Below are positions 1,278-64,000 of a DNA stretch of 64,000 bases, piece by piece. Position numbers and translations under genes: made by a program. The notes under the pieces are model-generated. The model was not told the origin of the DNA and did not search any database. It saw nothing but the letters and a program-made list of their open reading frames with translations. Within the stretch, counting starts at the first letter, position 1. Every line of letters begins with the position of its first letter. Location of the stretch: the IMG/VR virus record IMGVR_UViG_3300028920_000023; one strand, 5' to 3'. Source of the stretch: a virus (lineage: Duplodnaviria > Caudoviricetes).

Positions 1278-4172
1278 ACCTATGCACTCCTCTTTTTTGC
1301 ACCCGTTCTATGTTTTGGCACAGAAGAAGCCCTACTCAACACAGACGCCACCACAGACACAGACAAACACGACTGGCGCATCCACGCAGACACCAACCAA
1401 CAAGGCCTCTGGCACGCCATCTGGTATCGCACCAAACCAGACAACACAATCAGCATCCTAAAAGCCAAAAGCACCGACAACGGATACACCTGGAACACAC
1501 CAACAGTCCTAAGCCAAAACAGCATCGCAGACGCCAAACACACATCACCCAAAATAGCCACAGACAAACAAGGCCTCTGGGTAGCCACCTGGATGACAAA
1601 CGACAACCAACAAGGACGCAAAACCTCCTACAACATAGCCATACGCACAAGCACAAACAACGGAGAAACCTGGACCAAAACCAAAATCATCGGAACAAAC
1701 TCCTGCAAAGACCCAGACATCAAAATACACAACGGAACAATACTAATAGCCTGGGACTACTGGGACGGCAACAAAACCAACATCGCATATAGAACCAGCA
1801 CAAACGGAAGCACCTGGAGCAACACAACAATCTTCAACCACGACGGAGACGACAGCAACGTCAACATAGAAGCACACAACAGCACCTGGGCCATAACCTG
1901 GAGCAAAACCTACACAATCGGATCATACAAACAATCAGACATCTTCCTAACCCACAGCACAGACCTACAAAACTGGACAACACCACAAAAAATCAACAAC
2001 GGCAAAACAGGACAACAAAGCTACGACATCTACCCAAAAATCGAAACAAACGGAAACAAGTGGGTAGTCATCTGGAACGGCAAAAACACACTCAACAACG
2101 CCGGAACAGACTACGACATCATCAGCACAACCAGCACAGACCTACAAAACTGGACAACACCAACCGTTGTCAACAGCAACGGCACAACAGACAACAGATC
2201 AGACGAAGACCAGCAAATCGTCTACAACCAAGGAATTTGGACAGCAGTATGGTCCGGCTCCAATAACGTAGACATCAACGACATGGACGTCTACTACGCC
2301 ACAAGCACAGACGGACAAAACTGGGGGCCAAGGCAAGCCCTCAAATCAAACACCTACACAGATCCAACCTGGGTCGACGACGAAGCACCAAACATCTTCA
2401 CAGACGGAACTGGCTGGCTAATTGCCTGGACCTCCGAAGACAACAGAGACAACTGCGAAGCAGACAGAGACCTCTTCTACACCGTCAGCACAGACGGACA
2501 AAACTGGAACACCACACCACCAGCACCCCTAATCGCACAAGACGACCAATACACAACACAAGAAGACCAAAGCATACACAACAGCGTACTAACCAACGAC
2601 AACCCAGAAATATCATCAAGATCATTAGTCGCAAAACGAACCACCCTAAACGCCACACTAAACTCGCCACCCTCACATGGAACACTAGACTTCCATGCCG
2701 ACGGAACATTCACATACCAGCCAGACACCGGATACAATGGACAAGACACCTTCACATACACCGCCACAGACGGGATAAGAATATCCAACGAAGCCACAGC
2801 GCACATCACCGTACAGCCCATCAACGCCATAATACCAACCGCCATAATACAAGCCAGCCTCTGGAATATCCAGGTCGGTGATGATGTAGGATTCGATGGT
2901 AGCCATTCAGAAGATATCGACGGGGAAATTATAGAACACCTGTGGGATTTCGGAGATGGAACCATCATGGTAGGTGAGATACTAACTCACAAGTATAACA
3001 ACCCAGGCAATTATGAAGTCACACTCACAGTAACAGACAACGAAGGACTAACCGATAACGATACAATCATTATTATAGTAGAAAAAACAGAAGAAGGCAA
3101 CGATAAATTCGATATCGACGACGGCAAAATAACACCAAAAGACACATATATCGTCACAGCCAAAGTACTTGGAGCAGCCATCGAGATACCAGGACAATAC
3201 GAACTCATGGTCACAACCAGAATCAAGATCGGGGACGAAATCTTCGAATGCTGGGGAGACTGGAACAATGCGACCGAATCCAACGTGAACGACCATCAAG
3301 TGCATACCTGGACATCCGATAGAGAATTCGACATGCTCCCAATCTCCGCACAGGGGAAATCCTGGAAGAAGTACGGACAGAGCTGGAGACCCTTTATAAC
3401 AGTAGACTCAGAAACAAAACCTCAAATGGTCAAAATACTCAAGAATGGAGACACAATCCCAAATCTCTTGCCCTGGAACAACCAGAGCAATATAGAGGAT
3501 TTCATACAAGGCTTTCTGGATCTAGAGACGAATACCATCACACTGAACGAGAACGAAGCGATTTTCCTTTTCGAACTGGGTACAACCGACCCACACAGCG
3601 CCGCAGCCGATTACCAAGACCTCGTTGTCCTAATCTCCCTCGGGGAACCAGAACCCACACCAGAACCCACACCAGAACCCACACCAGAACCCACACCAGA
3701 ACCCACACCAGAACCCACACCAGAACCCACACCAGAAGCCAGAAAACCAGGATTTAAGCAGCTAAAATACAGAACAGTCTGGGATAAAGACAATCAAGAC
3801 CAATTCATGCTTAAAATGATAGACTTCGACGGACAGAACGGAGACCAAATAACAATAACCGTAGGCAAAAACACCTGGACAATCGAACTAGGGAAAGGAA
3901 ACGCACACAAAGACAACAATATAAGAGCCAAAGTGACCTCAAGCAACATGCTAATGTTCAAATGCGTGAGAGGAAACTTTGAAGACAACCTAGACTACAG
4001 ATCAAAGAAACAAAAGAAAGGAACAATGACACTGCCCATCACTGTCAATATAAACGAATCAACATTCAATTATAAAATCGACGTCGATTACAAAGTAAAA
4101 TCCAGGAAGAAAGAAGAATTCTCAATCTTCGGAAAGGACCTACGCAAAAGAAGAAAAACTAACCGTTTCTAA
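1239..4172 (+). CDS. secreted/surface protein: BNR/sialidase-like propeller, Big/cadherin-like domain, PKD domain, PEPT linker
   Basis: Signal-like MRCTYALLFFAPVLCFG from the second ATG (1269); repeated STDGxxW/STNNGxTW Asp-boxes; HGTL..ADGTFTYxP..GYNGxDTFTY; FDGSxS.D.DG.I..YxWDFGDG PKD motif. Confidence 0.8.
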   Translation: MRCVDTRRNTMRCTYALLFFAPVLCFGTEEALLNTDATTDTDKHDWRIHADTNQQGLWHAIWYRTKPDNTISILKAKSTDNGYTWNTPTVLSQNSIADAKHTSPKIATDKQGLWVATWMTNDNQQGRKTSYNIAIRTSTNNGETWTKTKIIGTNSCKDPDIKIHNGTILIAWDYWDGNKTNIAYRTSTNGSTWSNTTIFNHDGDDSNVNIEAHNSTWAITWSKTYTIGSYKQSDIFLTHSTDLQNWTTPQKINNGKTGQQSYDIYPKIETNGNKWVVIWNGKNTLNNAGTDYDIISTTSTDLQNWTTPTVVNSNGTTDNRSDEDQQIVYNQGIWTAVWSGSNNVDINDMDVYYATSTDGQNWGPRQALKSNTYTDPTWVDDEAPNIFTDGTGWLIAWTSEDNRDNCEADRDLFYTVSTDGQNWNTTPPAPLIAQDDQYTTQEDQSIHNSVLTNDNPEISSRSLVAKRTTLNATLNSPPSHGTLDFHADGTFTYQPDTGYNGQDTFTYTATDGIRISNEATAHITVQPINAIIPTAIIQASLWNIQVGDDVGFDGSHSEDIDGEIIEHLWDFGDGTIMVGEILTHKYNNPGNYEVTLTVTDNEGLTDNDTIIIIVEKTEEGNDKFDIDDGKITPKDTYIVTAKVLGAAIEIPGQYELMVTTRIKIGDEIFECWGDWNNATESNVNDHQVHTWTSDREFDMLPISAQGKSWKKYGQSWRPFITVDSETKPQMVKILKNGDTIPNLLPWNNQSNIEDFIQGFLDLETNTITLNENEAIFLFELGTTDPHSAAADYQDLVVLISLGEPEPTPEPTPEPTPEPTPEPTPEPTPEPTPEARKPGFKQLKYRTVWDKDNQDQFMLKMIDFDGQNGDQITITVGKNTWTIELGKGNAHKDNNIRAKVTSSNMLMFKCVRGNFEDNLDYRSKKQKKGTMTLPITVNINESTFNYKIDVDYKVKSRKKEEFSIFGKDLRKRRKTNRF
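3648..3737 (+). repeat. 12-bp tandem repeat CCAGAACCCACA x7 encoding (PEPT)7
   Basis: Seven perfect copies plus a partial copy, read directly. Confidence 0.95.
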
Positions 4173-4509
4173 TCCTTTCACTCAAATACTCGACCTCCTG
4201 TCTAATCCGCTGATCCGTCTCAACAGCATGGCCCATCCTGCGAACAACATAATGGACCGAAGAATGATCACGATCACAAAAAAACTGACCAATCTCAGAC
4301 AAACTATGATCAGTCAACTCCCTACATAAATAAATCGCAAAATGCCTAGCCCTAACAGCCGTAACATGCCTCCGATGCGAACGAACGACATCCCTGTCGA
4401 TATTATATCTAGAAGCAACAACACCAACTATCTCCGACATCGACAAAATGCTACCAACCTCCCTATCTGGGGACCACCTACCGCACCAGGGGCATCTCAT
4501 CATGACCAC
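4159..4509 (-). CDS. stand-alone DnaA C-terminal (domain IV) DNA-binding protein
   Basis: EIVGVVASRYNI..RSHRR..VRARHFAIYLCRELTDHSLSEIGQFF.DRDHSSVHY matches DnaA domain IV; no AAA+ domain. Confidence 0.85.
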   Translation of the reverse strand: MVMMRCPWCGRWSPDREVGSILSMSEIVGVVASRYNIDRDVVRSHRRHVTAVRARHFAIYLCRELTDHSLSEIGQFFCDRDHSSVHYVVRRMGHAVETDQRIRQEVEYLSERIRNG

Positions 4510-4892
4510 CCATCAAAACCAACAGAACCGTATTCCACACGTGTACAAAAGACCGACAGGCTGTAGCTTGTGCTCTGCAAAACGAAGTCGATTCGGTAGT
4601 ACCTGTCCTGGTCCCGGATGATGTCCCCTCTGGTCGGTGGTATCGTCAGATTGATGAATTTCCTATCGTCATTCTTTCTGTTGCTGATCAGCAGATTCGC
4701 TCTAAGCCCCTTTAGACTTTCCTCTAGGCCGTCACAAATGTCCAGAATTCGGTCATGCTCGTAATCATCGAATTGTGTTACGACGATACTGCCGTCTCTG
4801 ATGTGTAGATCCGGTGCTGGTTCCCAACCGACATCACCTTTAAAGCTAAGGCATGATATTGCTCTTACTTCGTTGCTCTTGTGTATCTGCAC
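4500..4892 (-). CDS. hypothetical protein, weak head-tail-joining-like motif
   Basis: 130 aa with GGAG SD; PTRGDIIRDQDRYYRIDFV motif. Confidence 0.5.
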   Translation of the reverse strand: MQIHKSNEVRAISCLSFKGDVGWEPAPDLHIRDGSIVVTQFDDYEHDRILDICDGLEESLKGLRANLLISNRKNDDRKFINLTIPPTRGDIIRDQDRYYRIDFVLQSTSYSLSVFCTRVEYGSVGFDGWS

Positions 4893-4993
4893 TTTGTGTT
4901 CTCCCTTTTCCCCGTCCTATCGCTCCATATGCGATTAGGAAGTAGAGCGCCAAAAACATATATCTTCGATATCGCCTGCGTAAAGCTATCCAT

Positions 4994-5001
4994 CAAAGAT
5001 A
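4994..5001 (+). promoter_or_regulatory. candidate late promoter CAAAGATA
   Basis: TCAAAGATACCATAA (4993-5007) is 14/15 identical to the minus-strand motif at 20664-20678; 24 nt before the sigma ATG. Confidence 0.6.
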
Positions 5002-5025
5002 CCATAAGACAAGGAGACAATACTG

Positions 5026-7299
5026 ATGGAACTGAGTGAAAAACTAGATCGCGTGTTTGGTCTAAAGCAAGTATTCGTTGAAGAAAATCAAGTATTAGAC
5101 GCCAACAAATGGCAAGCAGCAGACCCAGACCACCTAAACAAATTAGCTTTCTCTAAAAGCACAGGAGCACGAATGAACGCGCTCCTGAGAATCTTACGCG
5201 ATCTAGGCGAATACGACCTATTAAACACAATCAAAAAATATGACTCAGAAAATCCAAATTCAAGAAATCTAGCTTATGAGCTATACAAGCAAGCACGCAA
5301 AGAAGCACGCAAAGAAGCCAACAAAAGAGCTGCCATAGACCCCACCAGACGCGGCAAAGTCTTACGCAGAAGAGAAGCAGAAGCGCCAGCAGCTGGTATA
5401 GAGAAATCCCCAGAATCCAAACTGGTGGACCTGGCCCAAGCACGAGAAAAACCAGACAGAGAAAGACCAGACGATTATCGTTGGGCAATCATGGATGTAG
5501 ACACCGGAGAATATGCCAAAGACGACCAAGGCCACGCCATAACCGCAGAAACAGAAGACGACGCCCAAGCCCTAATCGACGGCGAAGTCGATATGTTCCC
5601 AGACCCGGACCAGTACACACCTAAAAGAATTGAAAACCCCAAATCACTAAAAGCACTAAGTAAAATCGTTAAACCACTACAGAATGGTTGGACTATGGAC
5701 GAAGTAGTCAAAGCGCTCATGCCTTATATCAGAAGTTTATCATGGAAATTCAGAAATGAAAAAGCAGACTTCGACGACCTAACTCAGACAGGCGCATTAG
5801 CCGTACACAACGCTATAGAAACAGACAAAGGCATAGCGCCATTCGCATGGCACGCCTATCCGCATGTCAAAGGGGCAATCATGAACACCGCCCTACGTGG
5901 TGGCGTAGTGTCCGGAGGAGAAAGAACATTCCGGCAAAAAGGACCAATCTCCGGATATACCATACTCTGGCGAGAACCAGAAGACAACCCAGACGAAGAA
6001 CCTAGATCAATTCACTTCGGCAGTAAAGAAATGACCGGAGCTCAATATGGGGGAACAGCTAGAGCAGAAGCGGGAAAAGGCGGAAGATCCGACCCCGGTC
6101 TAGAAAAAGCAAAACAGATGCAAGACCGACTCCGCGAAAGAGGTATCATCTCAGCCATCCGACCAGAACGACAAAGACTGGCGTCAATGGCATCCAAACT
6201 AAAAGGATCAGAAGGACAAACCGAACTTGGCGATACAGTCAAAGCAACCAAAGTAGCATCCCCAGAATTCATAACCCAACAGCAAGAATTATTCAATATG
6301 CTTATGGATAAAGCAGAATTGAATGATAAAGAAAAAGAAGTAATGAGAATGGCCTATGGACTCGATGTACCAGAAGCAGGACTTAGAGGCCCCTCCTACA
6401 GCGGAAGAGACCAAGGCGTCTTCGGTCCACCCGAATCAGGTGAAAAAGAAAGAAAACCGGGAGAACAATGGGGCATACCCTCGCCAACTGCCCAAGGCAA
6501 GCTCCTCAGACGCCATGCAGGCGAACTCGAAGGAGAACCCGAAGCAAGAGGGCCAGTAGAAATATCCGATATCCTGGGAATGCCGCGTAGCACCGTAAAA
6601 CGAAATTTCCAATCCGGTAGTAAGAAGCTGTACAAAGCAAGAGACGAACTATACAAACAATACCCGCATCTGCGACCCTTCATGAACAAAGCCTTTGGGA
6701 AGAAAAAAGCAGAAGAACCAGTAGGGAAGCCAACAAAGAAAGCCGCAAGGAAACCAAAGCCCGCAACAGTACCGGCTGCAGCGCCAGGGCAATACGACCA
6801 AGAAACGCTAGACTGGGCTCAAAAACACGGCTTCCCGCCAGAACAAGCCGCAATAATGATGCAAGCATTACGTAGCGCAGGAAAATTAGATGATAGCTTA
6901 GACAGAATCTTCGATGGGGAACTAGATCAACTGGACGAGCGATTTGGGCGAAAAGAAGTACCAAACATCAAAGCAACAAACTATTATTGCGCACGATGTG
7001 GGGAAACTACAAGACACTCCCTCAGAGGAGATAAATCGACCTGCGAAAAATGTGGAGCCATAAAAAGCAAAGTAACAGAAAGCCAAGCAGTATACGAAGC
7101 CAACATCATGTACCGTACATTCCTTAAAGCAACAAGGAAAATACGTAAAGCAGCCATAGAAGAAATAGACGAAAGATCAAAGCACATCCTAGAAGGAATA
7201 GACGAGCAAGAAATCAAAAACCTCTTAGAAATAGAAGACATCTGCAGACAACACCTGATAAAAGCAATCGTCTCCGGAGATTACAACGACATCGTCTAA
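5026..7299 (+). CDS. very large sigma70-family factor with N-terminal, internal and C-terminal extensions and a Zn ribbon
   Basis: Region 2 (ALMPYIRSLSWKF..DFDDLTQTGALAVHNAIE..FAWHAY..VKGAI); region 4 (LNDKEKEVMRMAYGL ... EISDILGMPRSTVKRNFQSGSKKL); CARC..CEKC. Confidence 0.75.
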   Translation: MELSEKLDRVFGLKQVFVEENQVLDANKWQAADPDHLNKLAFSKSTGARMNALLRILRDLGEYDLLNTIKKYDSENPNSRNLAYELYKQARKEARKEANKRAAIDPTRRGKVLRRREAEAPAAGIEKSPESKLVDLAQAREKPDRERPDDYRWAIMDVDTGEYAKDDQGHAITAETEDDAQALIDGEVDMFPDPDQYTPKRIENPKSLKALSKIVKPLQNGWTMDEVVKALMPYIRSLSWKFRNEKADFDDLTQTGALAVHNAIETDKGIAPFAWHAYPHVKGAIMNTALRGGVVSGGERTFRQKGPISGYTILWREPEDNPDEEPRSIHFGSKEMTGAQYGGTARAEAGKGGRSDPGLEKAKQMQDRLRERGIISAIRPERQRLASMASKLKGSEGQTELGDTVKATKVASPEFITQQQELFNMLMDKAELNDKEKEVMRMAYGLDVPEAGLRGPSYSGRDQGVFGPPESGEKERKPGEQWGIPSPTAQGKLLRRHAGELEGEPEARGPVEISDILGMPRSTVKRNFQSGSKKLYKARDELYKQYPHLRPFMNKAFGKKKAEEPVGKPTKKAARKPKPATVPAAAPGQYDQETLDWAQKHGFPPEQAAIMMQALRSAGKLDDSLDRIFDGELDQLDERFGRKEVPNIKATNYYCARCGETTRHSLRGDKSTCEKCGAIKSKVTESQAVYEANIMYRTFLKATRKIRKAAIEEIDERSKHILEGIDEQEIKNLLEIEDICRQHLIKAIVSGDYNDIV

Positions 7300-7613
7300 G
7301 TTTCCTCGGAGGAAACCTCATCATCAAACTCGACAGAACGACGCTGCAACTCTAAAATATCAGGCTCTTTTTCGGCCAGTCTCTCATTACCAAGAGACTG
7401 GCCTTTCTCTATCCACTCGTCTTTCTCAAGTATGGACTCCACACGGTTCTCGTCTAGAAATATCCACTCCACTTCACTAAATGTTCCACAGACCCTCTCG
7501 TGGACATTCTTGAAGAAACCCTGGAATGATGGTATCTGCCGGCCTTTGTTATCGCGAACCACAACGATCCCAGAGTGATAAAGAACGACCTTTACGACGT
7601 TTCGATATGACAT
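7296..7613 (-). CDS. hypothetical protein
   Basis: ATG at 7613 (MSYRNVVKVVLYHSG) with GAGGAG SD. Confidence 0.6.
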   Translation of the reverse strand: MSYRNVVKVVLYHSGIVVVRDNKGRQIPSFQGFFKNVHERVCGTFSEVEWIFLDENRVESILEKDEWIEKGQSLGNERLAEKEPDILELQRRSVEFDDEVSSEET

Positions 7614-8805
7614 TATGAACACACTCCTCAGATATCGGCCTAAACGAATCATCCGAATGGTAAATACCCTCACCGAGATCTAGAGCAATATCGCTGACAT
7701 CCATATCCTCAACCTCGGACCCAGCAGCATCCTCAATCTCTTCATCATCTGGAAATTCATCATCAACGTCAATATCTGTATCTTCTATCTCATCCTCAGG
7801 CTGAGTACCGTAGTCCTGAGCAGGTTCCTCGATAGGTTCTTGTTGTTTATACCTATTCGAATTACCATCGAGCATATAATCTGCCATTTTCTGGATGAAA
7901 CTAGCTGCATCTTCGCCTTCTGGCACATCTAGACGACCTTTGTCCAAAATCTTGTCATCCCTCCACAACTGCGCCATATAACGCCCCGGAACCATATTGA
8001 CCGGACGAAATCTCAACTTAAAACCATCTGACCTCTCGAAACCAATATCCTTCTTGTTCGGCAATTCCAAAGACGACCAAGAAGGAATCTCCGGACCAGT
8101 CTCTTCATCACCCAGACCACCCAGATCATCCTCCAGACCACCCAGATCATCCTCCAAATCACCTAGATCATCATCCAATTCATCATCCAATTCATCATCC
8201 ATACCTAATTCCTCATCATCGGCCTCTGTAGGGTCCTGCGAAGGAGGAGGATCACCAGCACTAGGCAGATCCTCTCCCTTGCCCCAACGATCCGGAGAAG
8301 AATAAGGATCAGAAGAAGACGGAAGGCCCTCTATAGCCTCCCTAATACCCAAGAAATCCCTCTGTAATACACCAGAAATCTCTCTGAGGCGCTCCCCAAT
8401 CTCAAGGAAATCATGGCGTTTCTCACCATCAGGATAATATCCAGCAAGCTCCATCCACTTATCAACAATACCATCCAACTGATTCTTAGCATTCTCAAGG
8501 GTATAACCACTACCTCCTGGGGTAGAACCACCATAATTCTCAGCTTCTTTGGACTGATCAGGATCTTTGATGCTTACGTCGATTTCCTCTTCTTCTCTTA
8601 TAATACCATCACTTAATCTGACCTTATCTCTTTGTAGGTTGGTATTGACCTGCTGTACGGCAACAGGCTGGTCAGGCAATGGTTCCATTCTCTGTAACCT
8701 AGAACTGGCCTTAGACATCCTGGTGTCCGAAGACAACCTCGGGTCTAAATCTTCAAGATTATCTATTTCAAGTCGCTTATCGAGTATTTTCTCTAGATTT
8801 TCCAT
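7549..8805 (-). CDS. acidic low-complexity protein, possibly head-associated
   Basis: 418 aa, D/E-rich, DDELDDELDDDLGDLEDDLGGLEDDLGG repeats; GGGAG SD. Confidence 0.75.
   Translation of the reverse strand: MENLEKILDKRLEIDNLEDLDPRLSSDTRMSKASSRLQRMEPLPDQPVAVQQVNTNLQRDKVRLSDGIIREEEEIDVSIKDPDQSKEAENYGGSTPGGSGYTLENAKNQLDGIVDKWMELAGYYPDGEKRHDFLEIGERLREISGVLQRDFLGIREAIEGLPSSSDPYSSPDRWGKGEDLPSAGDPPPSQDPTEADDEELGMDDELDDELDDDLGDLEDDLGGLEDDLGGLGDEETGPEIPSWSSLELPNKKDIGFERSDGFKLRFRPVNMVPGRYMAQLWRDDKILDKGRLDVPEGEDAASFIQKMADYMLDGNSNRYKQQEPIEEPAQDYGTQPEDEIEDTDIDVDDEFPDDEEIEDAAGSEVEDMDVSDIALDLGEGIYHSDDSFRPISEECVHNVISKRRKGRSLSLWDRCGSR
8112..8200. repeat. 21-bp and 12-bp tandem repeats encoding an acidic linker
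   Basis: CCAGACCACCCAGATCATCCT x2 plus a variant, then TCCAATTCATCA x2. Confidence 0.8.
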
Positions 8806-9108: not shown

Positions 9109-9989
9109 GGGGCTCTCATACCTAATGCTTCAAGCTTCTCCTCAATCTCAACACGTTCTCTATTCTTGCGTGGTTTATGATCTGGATCAATAAGCTTAGC
9201 TCCGATAGCTATAGAATATACCCCATCAATATCTCCGACAGCAAGACTATTAATAATCCTGGATTCCAGGGAGGATAATGTTATACTATTTAAAGAATAA
9301 TCTTCGAAAGCTTCCCAAGCCAACGGACACCATTTCTGGACAATCTTACCAATAACATTAGCATAGGCCCTGATTTCACATTGTGCATGGCTATCCATGC
9401 GCAACCTAAGAAAATGCAACAAATTATGCAGATCAATTTTCCAATACGCCTCAGTATAAGTCGAGAGGGGCAAATCCTTCCTAGCCTGCTCACGTGCTAC
9501 ACCCTGCTCAATCCTATACTTATAAACAGACCCAGCCTCCTCCAACAACTTCTTCTCCTGCTCAGACAAAATAGTGCCAACCCGAGCATCAAGATAATCG
9601 CCACTCCCCTGCTTATTGTCCTTGTTCTGGAAACGCCACTGACAGACTTCCGTAGCATAGGCAGAACCAATGGCGAACGAATACCTCGTAGAATATTCGT
9701 TAACAGAAGCAGTCCGATGCCGAATCCACTGTCTCCAACAATCCATAGGCACACGAACATGCAATTTGATCTCGCACATCTCAAAGGGCGTAGTATGCCT
9801 ATGCCTCATCAAATATCGAATCAAACCACGATCTTCACTAATCTTCTTGGTTCCACTGCCGTAAGAAACACGAGCAGCCTGAACAATAGAAGCATCATTG
9901 CCCATATAATCCACAACGCGAACGAAACCATTATCAAGAACATCAAAGTTATGATCAATAATCTCTTCCAAACCCTCAGAAATAATCAC
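9099..9989 (-). CDS. thyX: FAD-dependent thymidylate synthase
   Basis: VLDNGFVRVVDYMG, AARVSYG, LMRHRHTTPFEM, RQWIRHRTASVNEYSTRY, EQARKDLP, HAQCEIR. Confidence 0.97.
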   Translation of the reverse strand: MIISEGLEEIIDHNFDVLDNGFVRVVDYMGNDASIVQAARVSYGSGTKKISEDRGLIRYLMRHRHTTPFEMCEIKLHVRVPMDCWRQWIRHRTASVNEYSTRYSFAIGSAYATEVCQWRFQNKDNKQGSGDYLDARVGTILSEQEKKLLEEAGSVYKYRIEQGVAREQARKDLPLSTYTEAYWKIDLHNLLHFLRLRMDSHAQCEIRAYANVIGKIVQKWCPLAWEAFEDYSLNSITLSSLESRIINSLAVGDIDGVYSIAIGAKLIDPDHKPRKNRERVEIEEKLEALGMRAPWK

Positions 9990-10642: not shown

Positions 10643-10655
10643 TAGAATCCTCCAA

Positions 10656-25085: not shown

Positions 25086-25088
25086 AGG

Positions 25089-56011: not shown

Positions 56012-56879
56012 TATTTCATGCCATGTACATATATTCATGATCACATTATACCACAATCTTAAAAATGACGGATGGCATGTCAGATTATTCAGCGAGATAC
56101 TCGGCTTAGTTGAAACATCCAAAGAAATAATTACGCCTACTCTCAAGATCGGCGAAGACATAATAAAGATCAAGAGATTTGTAATTTTTCAGAAAGACGA
56201 AGAATATTATATAATAGAATTCCAAGATCAAGTCAATCCAAAGAAATTATCAGTTAGACACTTCATAAAAAATGAAGCTATCAAGATCGTGCTCAAATGC
56301 ATGTATCGAGATAACTTATATCAATGGGACAAAATCAGACCATTCTTGTACTTTGAAAAAGACCCACATATTTGGCAGAAGCACCTAGGATACCTCAGAT
56401 CAGGCCCAAGGAATGTACCAAAATTATACTTCCGTGGTACCTCGGGATTTGGAAATAGGAAAAACGTCCTCAAAAAATTAAGAATACTAAACCCAAGCCA
56501 AAAGAAAATAGGACTAAACCAATACATAGAAGAATGTAGACAACATATTATGGCCTTATCCCTGCCAGGAGTAGCCAATACCTGTCATAGAGAAATAGAA
56601 ATGTTCGGGGCCGGAATCCCGGTCCTAATGCCCAGACAAAAAACCGCATTCTACGACCCACTAATACCAAATTACCATTACATCTCAGTAGATGTTGACG
56701 CCAAACAGGACGCTACTGACACAATCGTATCTAAAATAACCAAAAGATTTTTGGAAACATATAAAAACGAGGCCTTGCTGCACGACATCAGAAAAAACGC
56801 TCTGGAATGGTACGATAGGAATATACTAGTTGGGAACAGAAGCAAAATAACTTTACGATTACTGGGTTTAAATGGATAA
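55953..56879 (+). CDS. GT-B (exostosin/GT47- or GT90-like) glycosyltransferase, start uncertain
   Basis: LYFRGT..NRK; YIEE..ALSLPGVANTCHREIEMFGAGIPVL. Confidence 0.65.
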   Translation: METPNQKPGIIYKKYLIKPNISCHVHIFMITLYHNLKNDGWHVRLFSEILGLVETSKEIITPTLKIGEDIIKIKRFVIFQKDEEYYIIEFQDQVNPKKLSVRHFIKNEAIKIVLKCMYRDNLYQWDKIRPFLYFEKDPHIWQKHLGYLRSGPRNVPKLYFRGTSGFGNRKNVLKKLRILNPSQKKIGLNQYIEECRQHIMALSLPGVANTCHREIEMFGAGIPVLMPRQKTAFYDPLIPNYHYISVDVDAKQDATDTIVSKITKRFLETYKNEALLHDIRKNALEWYDRNILVGNRSKITLRLLGLNG

Positions 56880-58245
56880 ATTCAGAAGAAAACTCCAAAT
56901 ATTACAACATAAAAAACAGGGGGCACCACTTCCGCCAACCAAAAAAGAATATATACCACCAGTACAACAGCAGCTGAGCATTTCCTTATGCTGCACATGT
57001 AAGGGAAGAAAAGAACAACTAGGATATACGGTACCTAGCAATCTTGAGATCATCAAAGATGACCAAGATATAGAATATATCCTGTTAGATTATGATAGCC
57101 CAGATAACCTCAAAGAGTTCGCCCAGAGATATCCACAACTGAAATATTATAGAATAAATGATAGACCATACTTCCACCATAGCGAAGCCAAAAATTTTGC
57201 ACATGCGCAGGCATCAAATGCAATTGTAATTAATATAGATTCCGAGACATATTTCACTAAAAAATTCATTGATAAAGTAAGAACAGAATTCACTAAGAAT
57301 ATAAACATTATATTACATTGCGACCGCCATGGGGTTATCGCGTTAAGCAGAGAAAACTTCCAGAAACTAAATGGATATGATACAAGATTCATAGGATGGG
57401 GCTCAGAGGATAATGATTTAGTCAACAGAGCCAGGAATCTAGGATTAAGACATAAAAAATTAAGAGGAAAAGAATATACCAGCTACCATGATCACAAAGA
57501 CAAAGTAAGAAACAGATTCACCATAATACCAAAACACCTTTCCTATCCGGCAAACAAAGAAATCCTTAAACAAAACGAAAGAAATAAAATAACAAGAGTA
57601 GAAAATAAACCAATATTCAGAAACAATAACCCAATGAGGTTCGTAATCGTTGTAGGCCTACCAAGATCCGGAACCAGCTGCGTAGCAGGGACCATCGAAA
57701 AACTTGGTATAGCTTTCAGCCCAAGCATGTATGGACCCAAACAAAACAACCAAAAAGGATTCTACGAGTGCGTAGTTCTGGCCAATGTTTGCCATAGGTG
57801 CGTAGCACAACCAAGTTTGGAATATAGAGTAAGTATCGAAAGCCGCAAAAAGAACTTGTTAGAATTGTATAAGTATTATAGATTCGGTATCGATAATAAC
57901 AGGACAGTGGGTATGAAGCATCCTCTTCTTACGATGATGCTCCCGGAAGCTGAGTATATCTTCGGGAATATCATATGGGTTAATGTGATAAGGCCGCTGG
58001 ATAAGATCAAACAGTCAGCTATCAGCGTGGGTTATTTTGGGAGCAAATCAGAGACTATAGCTATGCTGGATAATATGAATGCGGAACGGAATCACCAGAT
58101 GGATAAGAGGGAACATTTGGATGTATATTATGAGAGGTTGTTGCGGAGGCCAGAAGAGGAAATAGAGCGTATTGCTAATTATCTTGGAACAAATATGAAT
58201 ATGAGAGCGTTAGAATTTGTGGATGATAAATTAAGGCATTTCTAA
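56872..58245 (+). CDS. GT2/GT7C glycosyltransferase fused to a sulfotransferase domain
   Basis: NIDSE..LNGYDTRFIGWGSEDNDL; VVGLPRSGTS..KGFYE..MKHP..YYERLL..ERIANYLG. Confidence 0.85.
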   Translation: MDKFRRKLQILQHKKQGAPLPPTKKEYIPPVQQQLSISLCCTCKGRKEQLGYTVPSNLEIIKDDQDIEYILLDYDSPDNLKEFAQRYPQLKYYRINDRPYFHHSEAKNFAHAQASNAIVINIDSETYFTKKFIDKVRTEFTKNINIILHCDRHGVIALSRENFQKLNGYDTRFIGWGSEDNDLVNRARNLGLRHKKLRGKEYTSYHDHKDKVRNRFTIIPKHLSYPANKEILKQNERNKITRVENKPIFRNNNPMRFVIVVGLPRSGTSCVAGTIEKLGIAFSPSMYGPKQNNQKGFYECVVLANVCHRCVAQPSLEYRVSIESRKKNLLELYKYYRFGIDNNRTVGMKHPLLTMMLPEAEYIFGNIIWVNVIRPLDKIKQSAISVGYFGSKSETIAMLDNMNAERNHQMDKREHLDVYYERLLRRPEEEIERIANYLGTNMNMRALEFVDDKLRHF

Positions 58246-58964
58246 TGATTAGCTTCTGCACCACTTGTATGAACAGAACATGTCATTTGGCTAGGACTTT
58301 ACCGATCAATTTGGTAAACACAAGAGATTGTGATGTGGAGTTTGTTGTTTTAAATTATGGCAGCAGGGATGATTTGGATCATTTTATGGGGATGTTTTAT
58401 CATTTAATAATGACTTCTAGAGTCAGGTATTTCAAGACACAACAGGATGTCTTCCGGATGAGTCATGCTAAGAATGTTGTGCACAAGTTGGGCGATGGAG
58501 ATATTTTGTGCAATTTGGATGCGGATTGTATTATTGATGAGAATTTCGTTAAGGAGGTCAAGGAACGTGTGCTGGGCTCTGTGGTTAGGGGATGGTATGG
58601 TGGTCTTATTGCGATAGAGAAGAAGAATTTTATGGAATTGAGGGGATATGATGAGAGATTTAGGGGATGGGGTCGAGAGGATGATGATTTTGTTAACAGA
58701 GCTGGGCGTCTGGGGTTAGAGTTCGTGAGGTTAAATAGGGATGTTTATAAACAGATTAAGCATAAGCCTGATGATTCTAACCTGGATATGAAGGCTGAGG
58801 AATCTATTCCTCTAAACAGTGAATTGATGCATAATAATACTAAGCTAGGTATTATTACGGTCAATCAAGTTTCTTTTGGGGAGTGTATGATTGAATCTGG
58901 TAAAGTTGAGTTGACGAAGCCAAACAGTATGGTAAGGAGAGCTGTATCTAGATTCTCTAAATAA
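58245..58964 (+). CDS. GT2/GT7C glycosyltransferase
   Basis: ISFCTTCMNR, CNLDAD, LRGYDERFRGWGREDDDF. Confidence 0.85.
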   Translation: MISFCTTCMNRTCHLARTLPINLVNTRDCDVEFVVLNYGSRDDLDHFMGMFYHLIMTSRVRYFKTQQDVFRMSHAKNVVHKLGDGDILCNLDADCIIDENFVKEVKERVLGSVVRGWYGGLIAIEKKNFMELRGYDERFRGWGREDDDFVNRAGRLGLEFVRLNRDVYKQIKHKPDDSNLDMKAEESIPLNSELMHNNTKLGIITVNQVSFGECMIESGKVELTKPNSMVRRAVSRFSK

Positions 58965-58971
58965 AGTCTGA

Positions 58972-59000
58972 CCTCCCAAACATAATATGGACAAGGGAGG
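58972..59000 (+). promoter_or_regulatory. anti-SD/SD hairpin with CAAACATA
   Basis: CCTCCC/GGGAGG 6-bp stem; motif at 58977-58984, 21 nt before the ATG. Confidence 0.65.
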
Positions 59001-59005
59001 ACAAG

Positions 59006-59791
59006 ATGAAACAGAAAAATGTGGTTACCCTCTACAGAGAGACATGGAATCTGGGCGATGCAGTACAGACTCTAGCTTTGTCTAGGCTGATTGATGTCCA
59101 TGCTGGGATTTTCCGTGGAGAGAAGATTTATCTTGCCAATGATTATCTACATGTGAATAATGGTTATATCAGCGAGAAAGATTTTATTCCGCATCATGAT
59201 GCTTTGTTTGCTGGTGTGCATATTGATGTCTCATCTGGCGATGATAATATTTTGGTGTGGTTAGAGAATTCTTCTAGGCCTATTGGATCTAGGGACCCTT
59301 GGACGCATGAATATTTGTTGAAGAAGGGGATAAATTCTGAACTTGTTGGATGCGCGACAGTCACTTTCCCTACAATCGGTATGTGCGGTAAGGATGTTAT
59401 TAATGTTGAAAGCAGTTTGGAATTGGATGGTTGTATTAAGATGGACCATTTGATCCATAGGGAGATGTCGTGGGGTATGCAGTGGAATAGGGCTCAGAGT
59501 TATGTTACTAGGTATTCTATGGCGAAGTTTGTTGCGACATGTCGTTTGCATGTGGCGTTGGTTTGTATTGCGTATGGTATCCCGTTCTTTGTAGATAGGC
59601 CTAGGAATGAGAGTATGGAGAGAAGATTTAGTATTTTGTCTGAGATGGGTGTAAGATTTGGTGAAATCAATCAAATTTCTAATGAGGTTGTTGATGAGTG
59701 GAGGTTGAGGTATAAGGGGTTTTTGGAGAGGTTTGTTGATGTTGAGGAACATTCGCCAGGATTTGTTAAGCCGATATGGGATGTGGTCTGA
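59006..59791 (+). CDS. polysaccharide pyruvyltransferase-like protein
   Basis: NLGDAVQ, IGSRDPWT..VGCAT, VATCRLHVAL..AYGIP. Confidence 0.8.
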   Translation: MKQKNVVTLYRETWNLGDAVQTLALSRLIDVHAGIFRGEKIYLANDYLHVNNGYISEKDFIPHHDALFAGVHIDVSSGDDNILVWLENSSRPIGSRDPWTHEYLLKKGINSELVGCATVTFPTIGMCGKDVINVESSLELDGCIKMDHLIHREMSWGMQWNRAQSYVTRYSMAKFVATCRLHVALVCIAYGIPFFVDRPRNESMERRFSILSEMGVRFGEINQISNEVVDEWRLRYKGFLERFVDVEEHSPGFVKPIWDVV

Positions 59792-60300
59792 GGATTGTTT
59801 CTCCGTATTTTGATTTTACCCCTCCGGTTTTAGTGGAGAAGCAGAGGGAGGTTTTCGAGCGTTTTGATCTTCCTTTAGAACAGTGCAGAACGCGTGCTTC
59901 CGAGGGGAGCTTTTTGGATGAGGTAGTTCGTTCTGATTTTTCTTTGTTATTGTATTTCAGTCCTTATTGTGTTCCGTTGTTTGGTGATTTTATTAGGGTG
60001 GTTTGTTGTTTGGATCCGTTTGAGCGGTTGGTTGGTTTAAGGAGTCCTGGGTTTGGTGAGTGGGTTGTTGGTGGTTTTTTCGCTTTGAGTAGGGATGTTT
60101 ATGAGAGAGCTGGTCGTCCTTCGTTTTTGCCTTATGGTGGTGGTGTTTTGGGTCAGAGATTAATCAGAGGTTGTAGGGTAAATAGGATTGATGTCAGGTT
60201 TTTGGTGGATGATCAGTTGGTTTATCGTGGTGTGGTGAATGGTTTTAGGAGAAGGTGCGATAGGATTCTTTCTGAGGTTCCTGTATTGAGTTATGGATAA
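59776..60300 (+). CDS. degenerate GT-A-like protein
   Basis: GEWVVGGFFALSRDVYERAGRPSF; start uncertain. Confidence 0.5.
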   Translation: MGCGLRIVSPYFDFTPPVLVEKQREVFERFDLPLEQCRTRASEGSFLDEVVRSDFSLLLYFSPYCVPLFGDFIRVVCCLDPFERLVGLRSPGFGEWVVGGFFALSRDVYERAGRPSFLPYGGGVLGQRLIRGCRVNRIDVRFLVDDQLVYRGVVNGFRRRCDRILSEVPVLSYG

Positions 60301-60973
60301 ATTTCGGATTAGATTAAAGAATCGTGTTAAACCTAGAAAAATTAATAAGCATAATTCTGATAAATTATTTCTAAGGAATGTTACACTTATATGTATTGAT
60401 TGTGTGAATATTGTTGGGGCGTTACGTAGTCTTGCGATATGCTTACATTATTGCGATTTTCAAGATATCAAGTTTTTAACATCGGAAAATATGAACTTTA
60501 GATATAGGGTAGAGATACCTAAAATTCACAGCAAAAGAGAATATTCGTTTTTTGTTGTTAGAGAATTATACAAGTATGTCGATACTAGCCATTTACTCAT
60601 TGTACAACACGATGGATGGATTTGTAATCCCAAGGCATGGGATGATGAGTGGTACAAATATGATTATATTGGATCGAATGTTACGTGGATGGATAATAAA
60701 GGAGGGAATGGCGGTTTTTCTTTTAGGTCTAAAAGGTTATTAGAATATGGTTTGAATATTATTCCGGAGGGGAAAGAACATCCGGAAGATGCTGCGTACT
60801 CGTCTGTAAAGAAAAAGAATACTGGATTTAGGAAACAATTTGAAGATGCTGGTTTAAGATTTGCGGATAGGGAATTACAAGCAAAATTCGGATGTAAGAA
60901 TAGGAAGAAATGGGAAGGTTCTTTCGGCCATCATACGTCTAAATTGGATGATTGGAGAAATCCAATTGGATAA
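60293..60973 (+). CDS. DUF5672-like glycosyltransferase
   Basis: LLIVQHDGWICNPKAWDDEWYKYDYIG..GGNGGFSFRSK..PED. Confidence 0.8.
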   Translation: MDKFRIRLKNRVKPRKINKHNSDKLFLRNVTLICIDCVNIVGALRSLAICLHYCDFQDIKFLTSENMNFRYRVEIPKIHSKREYSFFVVRELYKYVDTSHLLIVQHDGWICNPKAWDDEWYKYDYIGSNVTWMDNKGGNGGFSFRSKRLLEYGLNIIPEGKEHPEDAAYSSVKKKNTGFRKQFEDAGLRFADRELQAKFGCKNRKKWEGSFGHHTSKLDDWRNPIG

Positions 60974-62456
60974 ATTCAGAAAAAGACTTATAAATCGTAT
61001 AAAACCAAAGAAAACTAATAAAATTGAGATACGAAATAAGGCAAATAAGATTATATCCCGTAATCATCTAGGAGGACATGAGAACATAACACATATAGAT
61101 GAAGCTGTCCTAGATTATTTAATAAGGCGATTTAGACCACATTCTTTTTTGGACGTCGGTTGCGGTCCAGGCGGCATGGTTTCTATAGCTAAATCAAGAG
61201 GATTATATTCAAAAGGAATAGATGGAGATGATAATATCAAATTTGAAGATTTGATATTGCATGATTTTCAAAATGGAAAAATAGACATCAAAAGAAAATT
61301 CGATATAATTTGGTCCACTGAATTTTTGGAACATATACCCGAGGAACTATTAGGAAACGTATTTTATACTCTAAAGAATTGTAGTAAAGAAGGAACAATT
61401 TTAATTATAACTGCGGCCCCGCCAAAATCAAAAGGACATTATCACGTTAATTTACAGAATTCAGATTATTGGATAGAAGTTTTCGAATCCAATGGATTTC
61501 AATATAGTAAGAGTCTCACTACATCAATACGAAGGTTATCTTCTATGAGACGCGAATTTATGAGAAAAACAGGTCTAGTATTTCAATTCAGGAGTAAATC
61601 AGAGAATAAAAAATCAGAACATCAAAAAACAAAAAAGATATGCTTTTATAGTTATTATGGCGGAGGCAAAAGACACGCAGAATTACTTAGGAAATATTAT
61701 GAATGTCGAAATTCAGAATTTTCAATAATAAAGCCTTGTAGTAAATGGTGTGAAGACGTATTTTCGGTAGTTACAGATATAATTTCGTCAGATATTATTT
61801 TCATCTGGAATGGGCAGGATCCGGGGTGTGATTGGATCAAATCTGTTTGCAAAGCTCATAACATCAAATATTTATACGCAGAATTGGGTCTTCTACCTCA
61901 GAAGAATAACTGGCATATCGACCCAAACGGTATAATCGGAAAGTCCTCTTTATGCAAAGAACTCAGTTGGGTTGATGACGAAATGATAAGAAAATACGAA
62001 CAATATAAGGAAACCTATATTCGAAAAAATAAATTATATTATAATCCTGGTGAATATATCTTGATTCCTTTACAATTGGAATTCGATAGTGCATTCTATC
62101 TCTATTCTGGTTATGCAAGAATATCTGATTTTATAGCGGATATGGAATCAAAATATGACAAAATCATCATCAGCCCACATCCTGTTAGGAAAGATATCAG
62201 ATTATATCCCAAAAAAGCTAAAATAATCAGAGATACCCCAACAATTAAGCTAGCTTTGAAATCAAAACAGGTAATAGGTCTGACCTCTACTATATTATAC
62301 GAGACATCCATGTTGGGCATCCCAACAGAAGCCATAGGGGATTGTCCTATGAAATACCATAAAGATGATCAAATACGTCTATTAGCAGCAGTATACCACA
62401 GACAAATACCAGAAGAAACAACAGATTTAACTAGATGGATAAACGATTTACTTTAG
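60966..62456 (+). CDS. SAM methyltransferase fused to a capsule-synthesis (KpsS-like) domain
   Basis: TTG start at 60966 with GGAG SD; FLDVGCGPG, FDIIWSTEFLEH; IFIWNG, YAELG, IPLQL, SPHP, TSTILYETSMLGIP. Confidence 0.78.
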   Translation: MDKFRKRLINRIKPKKTNKIEIRNKANKIISRNHLGGHENITHIDEAVLDYLIRRFRPHSFLDVGCGPGGMVSIAKSRGLYSKGIDGDDNIKFEDLILHDFQNGKIDIKRKFDIIWSTEFLEHIPEELLGNVFYTLKNCSKEGTILIITAAPPKSKGHYHVNLQNSDYWIEVFESNGFQYSKSLTTSIRRLSSMRREFMRKTGLVFQFRSKSENKKSEHQKTKKICFYSYYGGGKRHAELLRKYYECRNSEFSIIKPCSKWCEDVFSVVTDIISSDIIFIWNGQDPGCDWIKSVCKAHNIKYLYAELGLLPQKNNWHIDPNGIIGKSSLCKELSWVDDEMIRKYEQYKETYIRKNKLYYNPGEYILIPLQLEFDSAFYLYSGYARISDFIADMESKYDKIIISPHPVRKDIRLYPKKAKIIRDTPTIKLALKSKQVIGLTSTILYETSMLGIPTEAIGDCPMKYHKDDQIRLLAAVYHRQIPEETTDLTRWINDLL

Positions 62457-63398
62457 AATCATGTTAGCTGTTGCAATACAGGCACCAGTATGTCCTAATT
62501 CTGGAAAAGTTAACATAACATCAGAATCAGCTACAAGACCAAAAACGATAAAATAACCCTGAGCCTTATCCGTAACCCTCAATTCAGTTATCTTTCTCCA
62601 ACCAGATTTCAACATGGTCTCGCGATATTCGGATGTACCTCTCGGGTCTATGAACGAATATAACCTGGTTCCTTTTGGCACAGATAATTCGACAGACGAT
62701 CTATTGTTCATAGATAATCTTAAAAAGGATAAACCTATGAGTTCCTTGGGTATATCTTTTATGATATAATTCCTATCTACTAGATAGACAAAATTAGAAG
62801 ATATCGTAACAATATCTTTTTTACCATTGTGTTTAATAATAACGTTATTTCCAATCGAAACATTTGGTTTTTTACTCAAAACACTCATACCCTTCCTAGG
62901 CTCTTCCTTGAAATTAACCTCCTCAATATCATCACCAGCCTTAATCTGAAAAGTCTGATCACGATACCCCTCCTTCGCAATAGAAACGCTCCTGGTCTGC
63001 GGAGTATAGACCACAGTACAAGGAGTCACAGCATCCTTACCAAAAACATCCTTAACAGGCTTACCATCCACAAACACCCGCCAACCATCCTCAGCACTCA
63101 AAACATCAGCCTTCAACTGTACCGGCTTTAGCTTAACAACATCCAAACGCTTAATACCCCTATTCTCCACCTTCAGAGCAAGAACAAAATCCTCGTAACC
63201 AGCCTTCTTGAACAAAAGCTTCTGATCCCCAACCGGAACACGCACCAGACACTTCGTCATGCCCAAAGGAGCATTCATCTCCTCCTTGACCAAGAAAACA
63301 GCAGCCTTCGAAGGAGAAGAATCCACATAAAGCTTGCCCTCTTCTCCAAACACCACACCAACCAAAAGGAACAAACAAACCAAATATCGCATAATCAA
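62448..63398 (-). CDS. secreted PEGA-domain protein
   Basis: Signal MRYLVCLFLLVGVVFG; LYVDSSPSKAAVFL..KKAGYEDF; VFVDGKP..AKEGY. Confidence 0.75.
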   Translation of the reverse strand: MIMRYLVCLFLLVGVVFGEEGKLYVDSSPSKAAVFLVKEEMNAPLGMTKCLVRVPVGDQKLLFKKAGYEDFVLALKVENRGIKRLDVVKLKPVQLKADVLSAEDGWRVFVDGKPVKDVFGKDAVTPCTVVYTPQTRSVSIAKEGYRDQTFQIKAGDDIEEVNFKEEPRKGMSVLSKKPNVSIGNNVIIKHNGKKDIVTISSNFVYLVDRNYIIKDIPKELIGLSFLRLSMNNRSSVELSVPKGTRLYSFIDPRGTSEYRETMLKSGWRKITELRVTDKAQGYFIVFGLVADSDVMLTFPELGHTGACIATANMILK

Positions 63399-63414
63399 TC
63401 TCCTTTCTAACCTC

Positions 63415-63442
63415 TTTGTATCGCGCCCCGTCTAATACGCAA
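63415..63442 (-). promoter_or_regulatory. candidate early promoter
   Basis: TTGCGT-N16-TACAAA with GCGA before the -10. Confidence 0.5.
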
Positions 63443-63467
63443 CCCGTATATCTTAATCACAAAAACT

Positions 63468-63992
63468 TCAGTACGGAACCTCCCCAACAATACTCGTTAC
63501 AATCTTTTGGTGCTCCGGATCCATCTTCTCATGATCAACAGCCTTATCGACAACCACACCACGAGCTGCAAGATGAGAAAGATTAAACCGACTCATAATC
63601 TTACCAAGCTGACCACTCTTCGTACCACTCGGAAAATCATCACCATGCAACAAAAAGAACTTAGGACCACCCTCAGCCCTCAGACCCATCTCCAGATCAG
63701 TAGTAACATCAACACGACCACGAGGAACACCCCTATAAGCATCCTCCAAATCGTCAATATTATCCTCAATATCATAATGATCAATCAGCTTAGGAACAAT
63801 ATACTTCATCCAAGCCTCATAATGCGAAAGAGCACCATATTCGGCATCCGAAAAAGTCATCAAAACCCACTTCGGCTTCAAATACACATAATACCAAATG
63901 CCAGTAGAAGGCTTCCTAGACTCCTCGAGCTTCCTCACATCCTCAGCGCTAATCCCAAGAACCTCATCCAACTCGCTAGACAAATCAGACAT
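63468..63992 (-). CDS. hypothetical protein with a head-protein-like leader
   Basis: MSDLSSELDEVLGISAEDVRKLEES; YRGVPRGRV. Confidence 0.7.
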   Translation of the reverse strand: MSDLSSELDEVLGISAEDVRKLEESRKPSTGIWYYVYLKPKWVLMTFSDAEYGALSHYEAWMKYIVPKLIDHYDIEDNIDDLEDAYRGVPRGRVDVTTDLEMGLRAEGGPKFFLLHGDDFPSGTKSGQLGKIMSRFNLSHLAARGVVVDKAVDHEKMDPEHQKIVTSIVGEVPY

Positions 63993-64000
63993 GTCATTCC

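Follow-up and report, generated by a model that had tools for sequence, protein, structure and literature searches.

The DNA of an uncultured giant phage carries, inside intact genes, an extreme compositional strand skew that is built of two layers. We analysed 64,000 nt (hereafter, the window) of a ~355-kb phage contig from marine sediment, IMG/VR record IMGVR_UViG_3300028920_000023. At freely variable sites the minus strand of the window is G+T-rich whatever the direction of the genes, and so is the corresponding strand of eight syntenic relatives. Upon this genome-wide layer lies a second one that is anchored at gene or operon starts: the coding strand shifts to A+C after the start and moves in sharp steps to G+T further downstream. 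Four blocks of the plus strand that are G+T-rich are the places where the second layer outweighs the first. The skew is genuine and no artefact of the freely variable sites at which it is read. One strand is depleted of both C and A and enriched in both T and G, as strand-asymmetric transitions leave it (C>T together with A>G on the G+T-rich strand). As to its cause, we tentatively favour a replication-type transition bias acting genome-wide together with a second, transcription-linked layer at gene and operon starts.

Size of the skew and its independence of gene direction

A+C makes up 57.1% of the plus strand overall, 69.4% of its third codon positions and 70.4% of 9,734 fourfold-degenerate (fourfold) sites. 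The fourfold A+C share on the plus strand is 0.69 in plus genes and 0.71 in minus genes. Within plus genes, fourfold sites consist of A 0.43, C 0.26, T 0.19 and G 0.12, which we take to resemble the light strand of mammalian mitochondrial DNA (mtDNA). Measured in 400-nt windows, fourfold A+C climbs to 0.95-1.00 between 1.2 and 2.6 kb and falls to 0.09-0.30 in the four blocks, with the minimum of block 4 (0.09-0.10) at 59.8-60.2 kb. Codon positions 1+2 cover a narrow range of A+C, from ~0.29 to 0.68. Unannotated stretches between called genes are skewed as well (0.54-0.71).

We express the skew as AC3, the A+C share at third codon positions, or as AC3(+) when it is read on the plus strand. AC3 is much more extreme than the values at first and second positions (AC1 and AC2). 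Among windows of 133 third positions its standard deviation was 0.179, 4.5x the 0.040 due to sampling, and it ranged from 0.12 to 0.95, compared to 0.35-0.65 in a 50-kb control from phage T4. The T4 control showed neither a global skew (0.48) nor a within-gene gradient (0.009, p=0.45). Window-wide, in 150-nt windows, mean |GC skew| was 0.21 and mean |TA skew| 0.23, and the two were positively correlated (r=0.33).

Switches of polarity were placed by optimal-partition change-point analysis followed by local likelihood refinement. Over the 64 kb, AC3 changed by 0.25 or more at 22 points, many of them within open reading frames (ORFs), and there were at least 9 switch pairs. An earlier note on this DNA, made from the sequence by eye, had argued that a two-replichore model cannot explain the pattern, and the number and intragenic position of the switches bear this out. 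The 60-nt counts from which it started are exact (47/60 A+C at 1441-1500 and 49/60 G+T at 60001-60060, both in plus genes; 46/60 A+C at 29401-29460 and 39/60 G+T at 33301-33360, both in the minus gene 28722-34007), and most of its limits for the G+T blocks lie within ~50 nt of the change-point limits. Seven of the eight block borders have support intervals of 6-112 nt and the remaining one has 199 nt; the four intragenic switches have intervals of 6, 21, 24 and 75 nt.

A footprint of transitions at silent sites

Identical repeats are recoded within a single gene. In the collagen-like gene (Table 1), the A+C share falls from 0.73 in codons 1-551 to 0.11 in the rest for Pro CCN, from 0.57 to 0.06 for Thr ACN and from 0.86 to 0.07 for Ala GCN. 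Amino-acid content can be dismissed as the cause, given this recoding of repeats and the far smaller change at positions 1+2. The earlier note had allowed that the pattern might vanish after correction for amino-acid content; it persists, the Gly-Pro-Thr repeats being written with A/C-ending codons in 1-551 and with G/T-ending codons thereafter. Amino-acid-determining positions drift in the same direction, with AC1 0.32 and AC2 0.33 in gene 59776-60300 and 0.58 and 0.63, respectively, in gene 1239-4172.

Pyrimidine and purine sites of the G+T-rich strand are both shifted: over neighbour contexts T/(T+C) lies at 0.73-0.94 and G/(G+A) at 0.52-0.84, with little context dependence. No APOBEC-like TC/CC preference was seen among the depleted bases, C being kept somewhat better after G. 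The transition signature points to mutation pressure rather than codon choice.

Contigs of three sequencing runs carry 50350-64000 without one difference and bridge both borders of block 4, and the same runs contain 99-100% of the sampled words of 26000-35000, the region of blocks 1 and 2. This agreement argues weakly against a chimera, as the runs may be source samples. Blocks 1, 2 and 4 are single-copy within the window (self-BLAST at >=100 nt gave no match outside the collagen gene), while block 3 shares 64-75% identity with other collagen repeats.

The skew is reset at gene starts

Borders were pooled over 256 kb from nine loci, the window and its eight relatives; each junction type is unchanged by reverse-complementing, and the two strands were hence taken together. 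Of 18 large switches from G+T to A+C, 14 have a gene start within 120 nt (25% at random, p=4e-6). Of 17 large switches from A+C to G+T only one has, and these are located inside genes. Passing a gene start raises the coding-strand AC3 by +0.095, a rise seen in 74% of 218 genes (p=3e-16), and the first third of a gene exceeds its last third by +0.10 (167 genes, p=3e-13). Along genes C and A drop, G and T climb and GC3 shifts slightly. In majority-orientation genes, (C-G)/(C+G) at fourfold sites declines from +0.16 to +0.19 at codons 10-50 to -0.16 at codons 500-1000; along minority-orientation genes it is flat.

A logistic model separated the two layers. Its strand term was +0.82 logit for the plus strand of the window; the relatives, read on the same physical strand, gave -0.10 to -0.74. 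In all nine loci the majority of genes are co-oriented with this term. The coding-strand 5' term was +0.55 to +0.7 logit with a decay of 0.3-3 kb, for a gain of 250-370 log-likelihood units. The model showed no constant coding-strand effect. Mere attenuation of the global skew near gene starts fitted worse than the coding-strand 5' term and was rejected.

The two terms together account for the four blocks (Table 1). In blocks 1-3, which lie in minus genes, the 5' term overcomes the strand term over the first 0.65-1.65 kb. In the run of plus genes at 52701-60300 (~7.6 kb), the layers agree at first (0.86-0.95) and the distal G+T tendency wins after ~5 kb, producing block 4. The earlier note had placed three of the blocks over the beginnings of minus-strand genes that carry a late motif. 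Their placement is right (the stretches covered, counted from the starts of genes or operons, measure 0.65, 1.5 and 1.65 kb), but motif and k-mer scans found no shared late motif. At block-ending gene starts, TCTCGTACC had 13 matches vs 9.4 expected and AAATARRAG had 4 vs 4 expected, and an unbiased k-mer comparison of 33 'jump' starts with 119 others gave a best p=0.02, uncorrected.

Block 1 is flanked by AC3(+) of 0.84 on the left, where the switch has a support interval of 6 nt, and of 0.62 on the right. Block 2 ends on the right at the divergent gene-start pair 34363/34408, and the coding-strand AC3 of the baseplate gene steps down, 5' to 3', through 0.95, 0.74, 0.34 and 0.15. Block 3, with flanks at 0.73 and 0.83, has its right switch at the start codon (50295). 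Block 4 occupies the distal end of a series of glycosyltransferase genes beginning at 52701, namely the last third of 56872-58245 followed by 58245-58964, 59006-59791 and 59776-60300. Its left switch falls at codon 332. A domain-fusion origin of block 4 was considered and rejected, since this switch lies inside the sulfotransferase domain (residues 258-441), away from the domain border. In the segments of partial reversal AC3(+) is 0.41-0.54, against 0.76-0.87 in their flanks. The two near-unskewed stretches may be recent arrivals in which recoding is incomplete.

Folding of 101 nt around the four intragenic switches gave z-scores of -0.73, -0.45 and +0.05, with -2.25 at the collagen junction alone, where A+C-coded and G+T-coded copies of one repeat pair together. 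GC content around the switch points revealed no consistent AT-rich element.

Table 1. Skewed segments of the window and the principal genes in which they lie
Feature	Position	Strand	Context	Composition or evidence
A+C extreme stretch of plus strand	1322-2855	+	within plus gene 1239-4172	AC3 0.91; fourfold 0.95-1.00 (400-nt windows)
Block 1	26163-26700	+ strand G+T-rich	covers ~first 650 nt of minus gene 25089-26813	AC3(+) 0.26
Block 2	32808-34349	+ strand G+T-rich	first 400 baseplate-gene codons and small minus gene 34025-34363	AC3(+) 0.23, n=512
Block 3	48661-50275	+ strand G+T-rich	first 551 codons of collagen-like gene	AC3(+) 0.36
Block 4	57867-60297	+ strand G+T-rich	in plus genes	AC3(+) 0.26; weaker tail to 60872
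Partial reversal	20386-20768		5' end of minus gene 18130-20649; adjoins divergent plus gene 20745	
Similar dips	4563-5079, 12565-12946, 13189-13386, 24734-25137, 52346-52823			
Near-unskewed low-GC stretch	60874-62877		DUF5672 and methyltransferase genes	AC3 0.55, GC 0.32-0.36
Near-unskewed stretch	367-956		two small ORFs without family	GC 0.61
PKD/Ig-domain protein	1239-4172	+	plus ORF thus real	Pfam PKD E=2e-20
P2_I-like baseplate/tail gene P0002, 1761 aa	28722-34007	-		Pfam Tail_P2_I and PA14
Collagen-like (Gly-Pro-Thr)n giant gene, 3696 aa	39205-50295	-		GC ~0.60; translation; 9-nt periodic repeats

The pattern recurs in relatives saturated at silent sites

The eight relatives (L001-L008) were each analysed over 24 kb around a homologue of the baseplate gene, and their gene order is conserved. 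Identity between the baseplate orthologues at fourfold sites is 24-42%, that is, saturated, in all pairs but L001/L002 (50%). Most baseplate orthologues nevertheless begin with an A+C-rich coding strand and then step down to G+T-rich. The steps run 0.93, 0.71, 0.34 and 0.12 in L004 and 0.81, 0.60 and 0.29 in L006; the step-down is weaker in L001, L003, L007 and L008, weak in L002 and essentially absent in L005, which is flat. The steps cluster near alignment columns 370-445 and 780-960, with five lineages each, and identity of the baseplate protein to its relatives is unbroken through the switch. Positional counterparts of the block-1 gene in L004 and L006 show the same flip. Conservation of switch points, which the earlier note had proposed as a check, is thus seen at the gene start, where the flip recurs.

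Since silent sites are saturated and the flip occurs at the same place, the pattern is actively maintained and is not the relic of an inversion or import. Between the baseplate genes of L001 and L002, the closest pair (86% amino-acid identity), fourfold differences in the 5' interval run 34:16 toward A/C, and in the rest of the gene they run 48:81, i.e. toward G/T (Fisher p=2e-4 vs the 5' interval). In recent time, therefore, substitution has had opposite polarity in two parts of one gene. As the pattern is kept in saturated lineages and the closest pair is still diverging, the process is ongoing.

A 611-aa gene that is inverted in L007 has an A+C-rich coding strand throughout, while its co-oriented counterparts flip to 0.02-0.2. 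Two segments of L007 are inverted relative to the other relatives, 7035-7673 (thymidylate kinase) and 13885-16169 (the 611-aa gene and a 146-aa gene), and these inversions are natural experiments for studies of strand bias. Near the baseplate module, relatives carry Mom-like (PF25680) and radical-SAM genes (L005:19305-20828, L007:16215-17606, L007:19379-20869 and L006:2169-3110), which hints at DNA base modification in the clade.

Candidate mechanisms

Layer 1 behaves as a replication-type asymmetry because it is independent of gene direction, is co-oriented with most genes and has been adopted by the gene inverted in L007. Forks would run mainly one way, co-oriented with the minus strand, which carries ~70% of the coding sequence of the window. 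Layer 2 would most likely be tied to transcription, the mutational regime on the two strands differing between promoter-proximal and distal phases. It would then parallel the proposal made for fungal genes with a C bias at their 5' and a G bias at their 3' end, at about an order of magnitude greater strength. Anchoring at the starts of genes of both orientations and an effect tied to the coding strand support this reading of layer 2; block 4 is explained without special pleading, and the fungal precedent has the same sign. Promoter-proximal strand-specific mutation, one of three causes suggested in the earlier note, gives the best general fit among them to the switches at gene starts and to their recurrence, although the promoter motif was not found.

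Several observations weigh against a transcription-linked second layer. We infer the link between switches and transcription, and scans of gene starts found no promoter motif. A purely transcription-tied process should act on both gene orientations, but the 5' effect is +0.12 in majority-orientation genes and on average a weak +0.045 in minority-orientation genes. Borders that are sharp and stepwise are more readily reconciled with discrete sites (origins, termini or the ends of RNAs) than with a transcription gradient, which would be smooth. The two polarities are equally extreme (0.04 and 0.96 in L004), and this suggests a single process able to change strand rather than two different ones. 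In bacteria, the bias classically associated with transcription makes the coding strand richer in G+T, not in A+C. Models of gene distance, moreover, account for a small share of the patchiness. It is conceivable, if unlikely, that the stepped profile is a permanent record of an undescribed, gene-start-anchored and strand-switching DNA process in giant phages. Such a process could be replication that is transcript-primed at dozens of genes, each step marking an RNA-to-DNA switch point, or a new regime of deamination or repair that depends on the phase of transcription.

A single replication-linked process whose polarity is set locally is a serious alternative, yet we consider it rather unlikely. 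DNA synthesis would start at many intragenic sites, for example at the 3' ends of R-loop transcripts; the main fork would follow transcription, and short counter-directional synthesis would run back and stop at the gene start. A block would then extend from promoter to RNA-to-DNA switch point, and a step-down would reflect several alternative switch points. Such a process agrees well with the equal extremes of both polarities and with sharp stepwise borders, as found at origins and termini. It also agrees with the contrast between the two borders across relatives, one being fixed at the gene start and the other variable. In all nine loci most genes point the way in which the main fork is inferred to run, the effect resides mostly in genes co-oriented with the global polarity, and the classical rule, by which the lagging-strand template becomes G+T-rich, combined with counter-directional promoter-proximal synthesis would yield the observed sign. 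On the other hand, an R-loop should lead to a gain of G+T on the strand that it displaces, the opposite sign. Initiation would be needed in a large share of genes, tightly packed tandem genes included, no sequence or structure feature was found at intragenic switch points, and some minority-orientation genes start A+C-rich too (L006). The many R-loop-primed replication starts suggested in the earlier note have a compatible geometry, and the annotation of T4 places transcript-primed origins in the 5' regions of genes, but its annotated oriE and oriF leave no compositional footprint (AC3 0.39-0.61). We regard it as improbable that the blocks arise from recurrent strand-polar recombination or repair tracts which start at fixed sites and involve resection at a break or nick, one-sided error-prone fill-in or mismatch-biased gene conversion, the class of process suspected for the bacterial elements called GRINS and for skews around break hotspots. 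The GRINS signature is alike, opposing G+T to A+C most strongly at third positions, abruptly and with both signs on one strand (PMC8256042), and the positively correlated mean |GC| and |TA| skews of the window (0.21 and 0.23) fit as well. T4-like phages recombine heavily, and break resection at a fixed site followed by ordinary deamination would leave G+T-rich DNA on the left and A+C-rich DNA on the right, as at gene starts. However, three of the blocks are single-copy and block 3 reaches 64-75% identity to other collagen repeats, so that the gene conversion between repeats that defines GRINS is absent. Variable tract lengths should grade the borders, which are 6-25-nt sharp, the skew maximum is not next to the fixed border, and we know of no reason for breaks at gene starts.

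Selection rather than mutation, acting either for a 5' mRNA that is unstructured or resistant to R-loops or for two codon 'dialects' matched to tRNA pools, seems to us very improbable. RNA that is rich in A+C has no means of self-pairing, and A+C-rich coding stretches do fold weakly as RNA (-0.136 kcal/mol per nt, vs -0.231 for G+T-rich stretches and -0.193 for T4 late genes), and the 5' effect occurs mainly in genes whose mRNA would else be G+U-rich. The G+T-rich majority, however, folds more strongly than the control, and structure avoidance cannot explain the whole skew. Upon gene inversion polarity follows the DNA strand and not the gene; the stretches between genes are skewed (0.54-0.71), and positions 1+2 and amino-acid use drift likewise. 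The blocks are 0.5-3 kb long, well past any known initiation effect, and A and C shift together, as transitions predict, unlike hybrid stability. That the blocks are recently inverted or imported segments, or assembly chimeras, which keep a former skew is hardly credible. Phage genomes are mosaic and the borders are sharp, and the odd near-unskewed stretches (60.9-62.9, 12.6-13.4 and 0.4-1.3 kb) look like recent arrivals. Yet the flip stands at the same gene start in relatives that are saturated at silent sites, so that it is no relic, protein identity continues across the switch, and in-frame ORFs run through all intragenic switches. Mosaic joints should make no distinction between the two types of border, of which one is found at gene starts and the other away from gene borders. 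Contigs from three runs, possibly source samples, agree over 50350-64000 and bridge the borders of block 4. The relatives largely refute a history of this kind for blocks 1 and 2, and for blocks 3 and 4 the border rule makes it less likely. The misassemblies or recombination joints that the earlier note named as a possible source of the switch points are likewise contradicted by the bridging contigs and by the unbroken homology to relatives.

Gene content of the window and further observations

A megablast search with 12 kb gave no match among deposited phages (50,697 phage records), and a clamp-loader scan of viral contigs found no relative. Real genes of the plus strand include the PKD/Ig-domain protein and several glycosyltransferases. 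Those of the minus strand include ThyX, thymidylate kinase, a clamp loader, an AAA ATPase and two nucleotide-sugar epimerases, besides the large P2_I-like baseplate protein (1761 aa) and collagen-like protein (3696 aa). The baseplate gene has 92 family homologues at E ~1e-75 or better. Between genes 27693-28694 and 27144-27623, at ~27630-27660 on the minus strand, a hairpin is followed by a T run (caggacgg-ttaa-ccgtcctg-ttt) and is likely an intrinsic terminator closing the baseplate operon. A scan of the whole window against Rfam gave no match at E<=0.1.

In the collagen-like protein, (Gly-Pro-Thr)n tracts are broken by ~8 copies of a ~130-aa globular domain. The GC content of its gene is 0.60, vs ~0.40 for the genome, and a repeat finder returned the trivial 9-nt periodicity alone. 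Directly upstream of block 3 lies an adenosine-deaminase-family gene (PF00962, E=7e-42; 50339-51301, minus strand) that is conserved in the clade (L003:3233-4186, L007:3018-4001 and L006:1-116). The substrates of this family are free nucleosides, and a tie to the A>G-type skew is a curiosity at most. Two glycosylation islands, 9986-13344 and 51288-62456, contain at least seven glycosyltransferase-type genes and two nucleotide-sugar epimerases, together with a glycosyltransferase-sulfotransferase fusion (56872-58245) and pyruvyl-transferase-like genes. With the collagen-like protein, these islands are reminiscent of giant-virus fibre glycosylation. A 757-aa protein encoded on the plus strand (5026-7299) has a weak match to sigma-70 region 2 (E=2e-4, under the Pfam cut-off) and is a possible phage sigma-like factor.

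A 453-aa stop-free ORF on the A+C-rich plus strand, 22816-24177, lies antisense to the real clamp-loader gene (23017-24195, minus strand). It is spurious, its skew peak at codon position 1 exposing it as false. The A+C-rich strand is stop-poor, which gives rise to long false ORFs of this kind and misleads gene callers, and the two codon 'dialects' will mislead codon-usage gene finders, detectors of horizontal transfer and binning tools.

Strand skews are routinely used to locate origins and to infer mutational mechanisms, and this phage breaks the usual rules. A+C reaches up to 100% at free sites; the skew is independent of gene direction yet reset where genes start; inside intact genes it flips over 6-25 nt, and it has been rebuilt independently in relatives without shared silent-site identity. 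If transcript-primed replication or transcription-phase mutation were the cause, silent-site composition would map initiation sites or transcription units in uncultured giant phages, and the same cause might explain the unexplained GRINS skews of bacteria.

Comparison with known systems

We found no description of such skews in phages in the literature. At silent sites a G+T strand here faces an A+C strand, in whichever direction the genes run, and the asymmetry includes both C>T-type and A>G-type components; in these features it is like the leading/lagging asymmetry of bacteria and the H/L asymmetry of vertebrate mitochondria. The sign is the same for both gene orientations (0.69 and 0.71, and the inverted gene of L007), as two replichores would have it. 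Polarity, however, switches 22 times rather than at one origin and one terminus alone, and one class of switches is tied to gene starts. The R-loop origins of T4 (oriF/uvsY and oriE/gene 5) and ColE1 have a promoter-tied start with an RNA-to-DNA switch slightly downstream. This geometry is compatible with a fixed border at the gene start and a second border inside the gene. They differ in that the T4 origins have no compositional footprint, and the inner borders here have no AT-rich or structured element. Mosaic or inverted segments should show a break of homology at their borders and be absent in relatives; here the flip is present in most of the eight relatives.

The closest known systems are GRINS and the 5'C/3'G gene skews of fungi. 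GRINS have intense, correlated GC and TA skews that peak at third codon positions, shift abruptly and take both signs on one strand within 1 kb; they are repeats of >500 bp and >80% identity in polyketide synthase clusters and are linked to gene conversion, and their mechanism is unexplained (PMC8256042). In both cases the skew lies inside functional genes and spills over into amino-acid use, and the window passes the thresholds by which GRINS skews are recognized (mean |GC| and |TA| skew >0.15, positive correlation, maximum at third positions). The blocks are not GRINS-type repeats (>500 bp at >80% identity to another region), three of the four being single-copy. The phage skew further differs in being at the scale of a ~355-kb genome, with a genome-wide polarity and a reset at gene starts.

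In unicellular fungi, the coding strand is C-biased at the 5' ends of genes and G-biased at the 3' ends, fourfold sites included; this affects amino-acid use, and mutational regimes differing along the transcription unit have been proposed (PMC3315797). Majority-orientation genes of the phage show the same 5'C/3'G trend at fourfold sites, with the same sign. The fungal skew concerns genes of eukaryotic RNA polymerase II and is reportedly a small effect. In the phage, by contrast, the GC and AT axes move jointly, values reach 95% and more, the steps are sharp, and a direction-independent layer lies on top.

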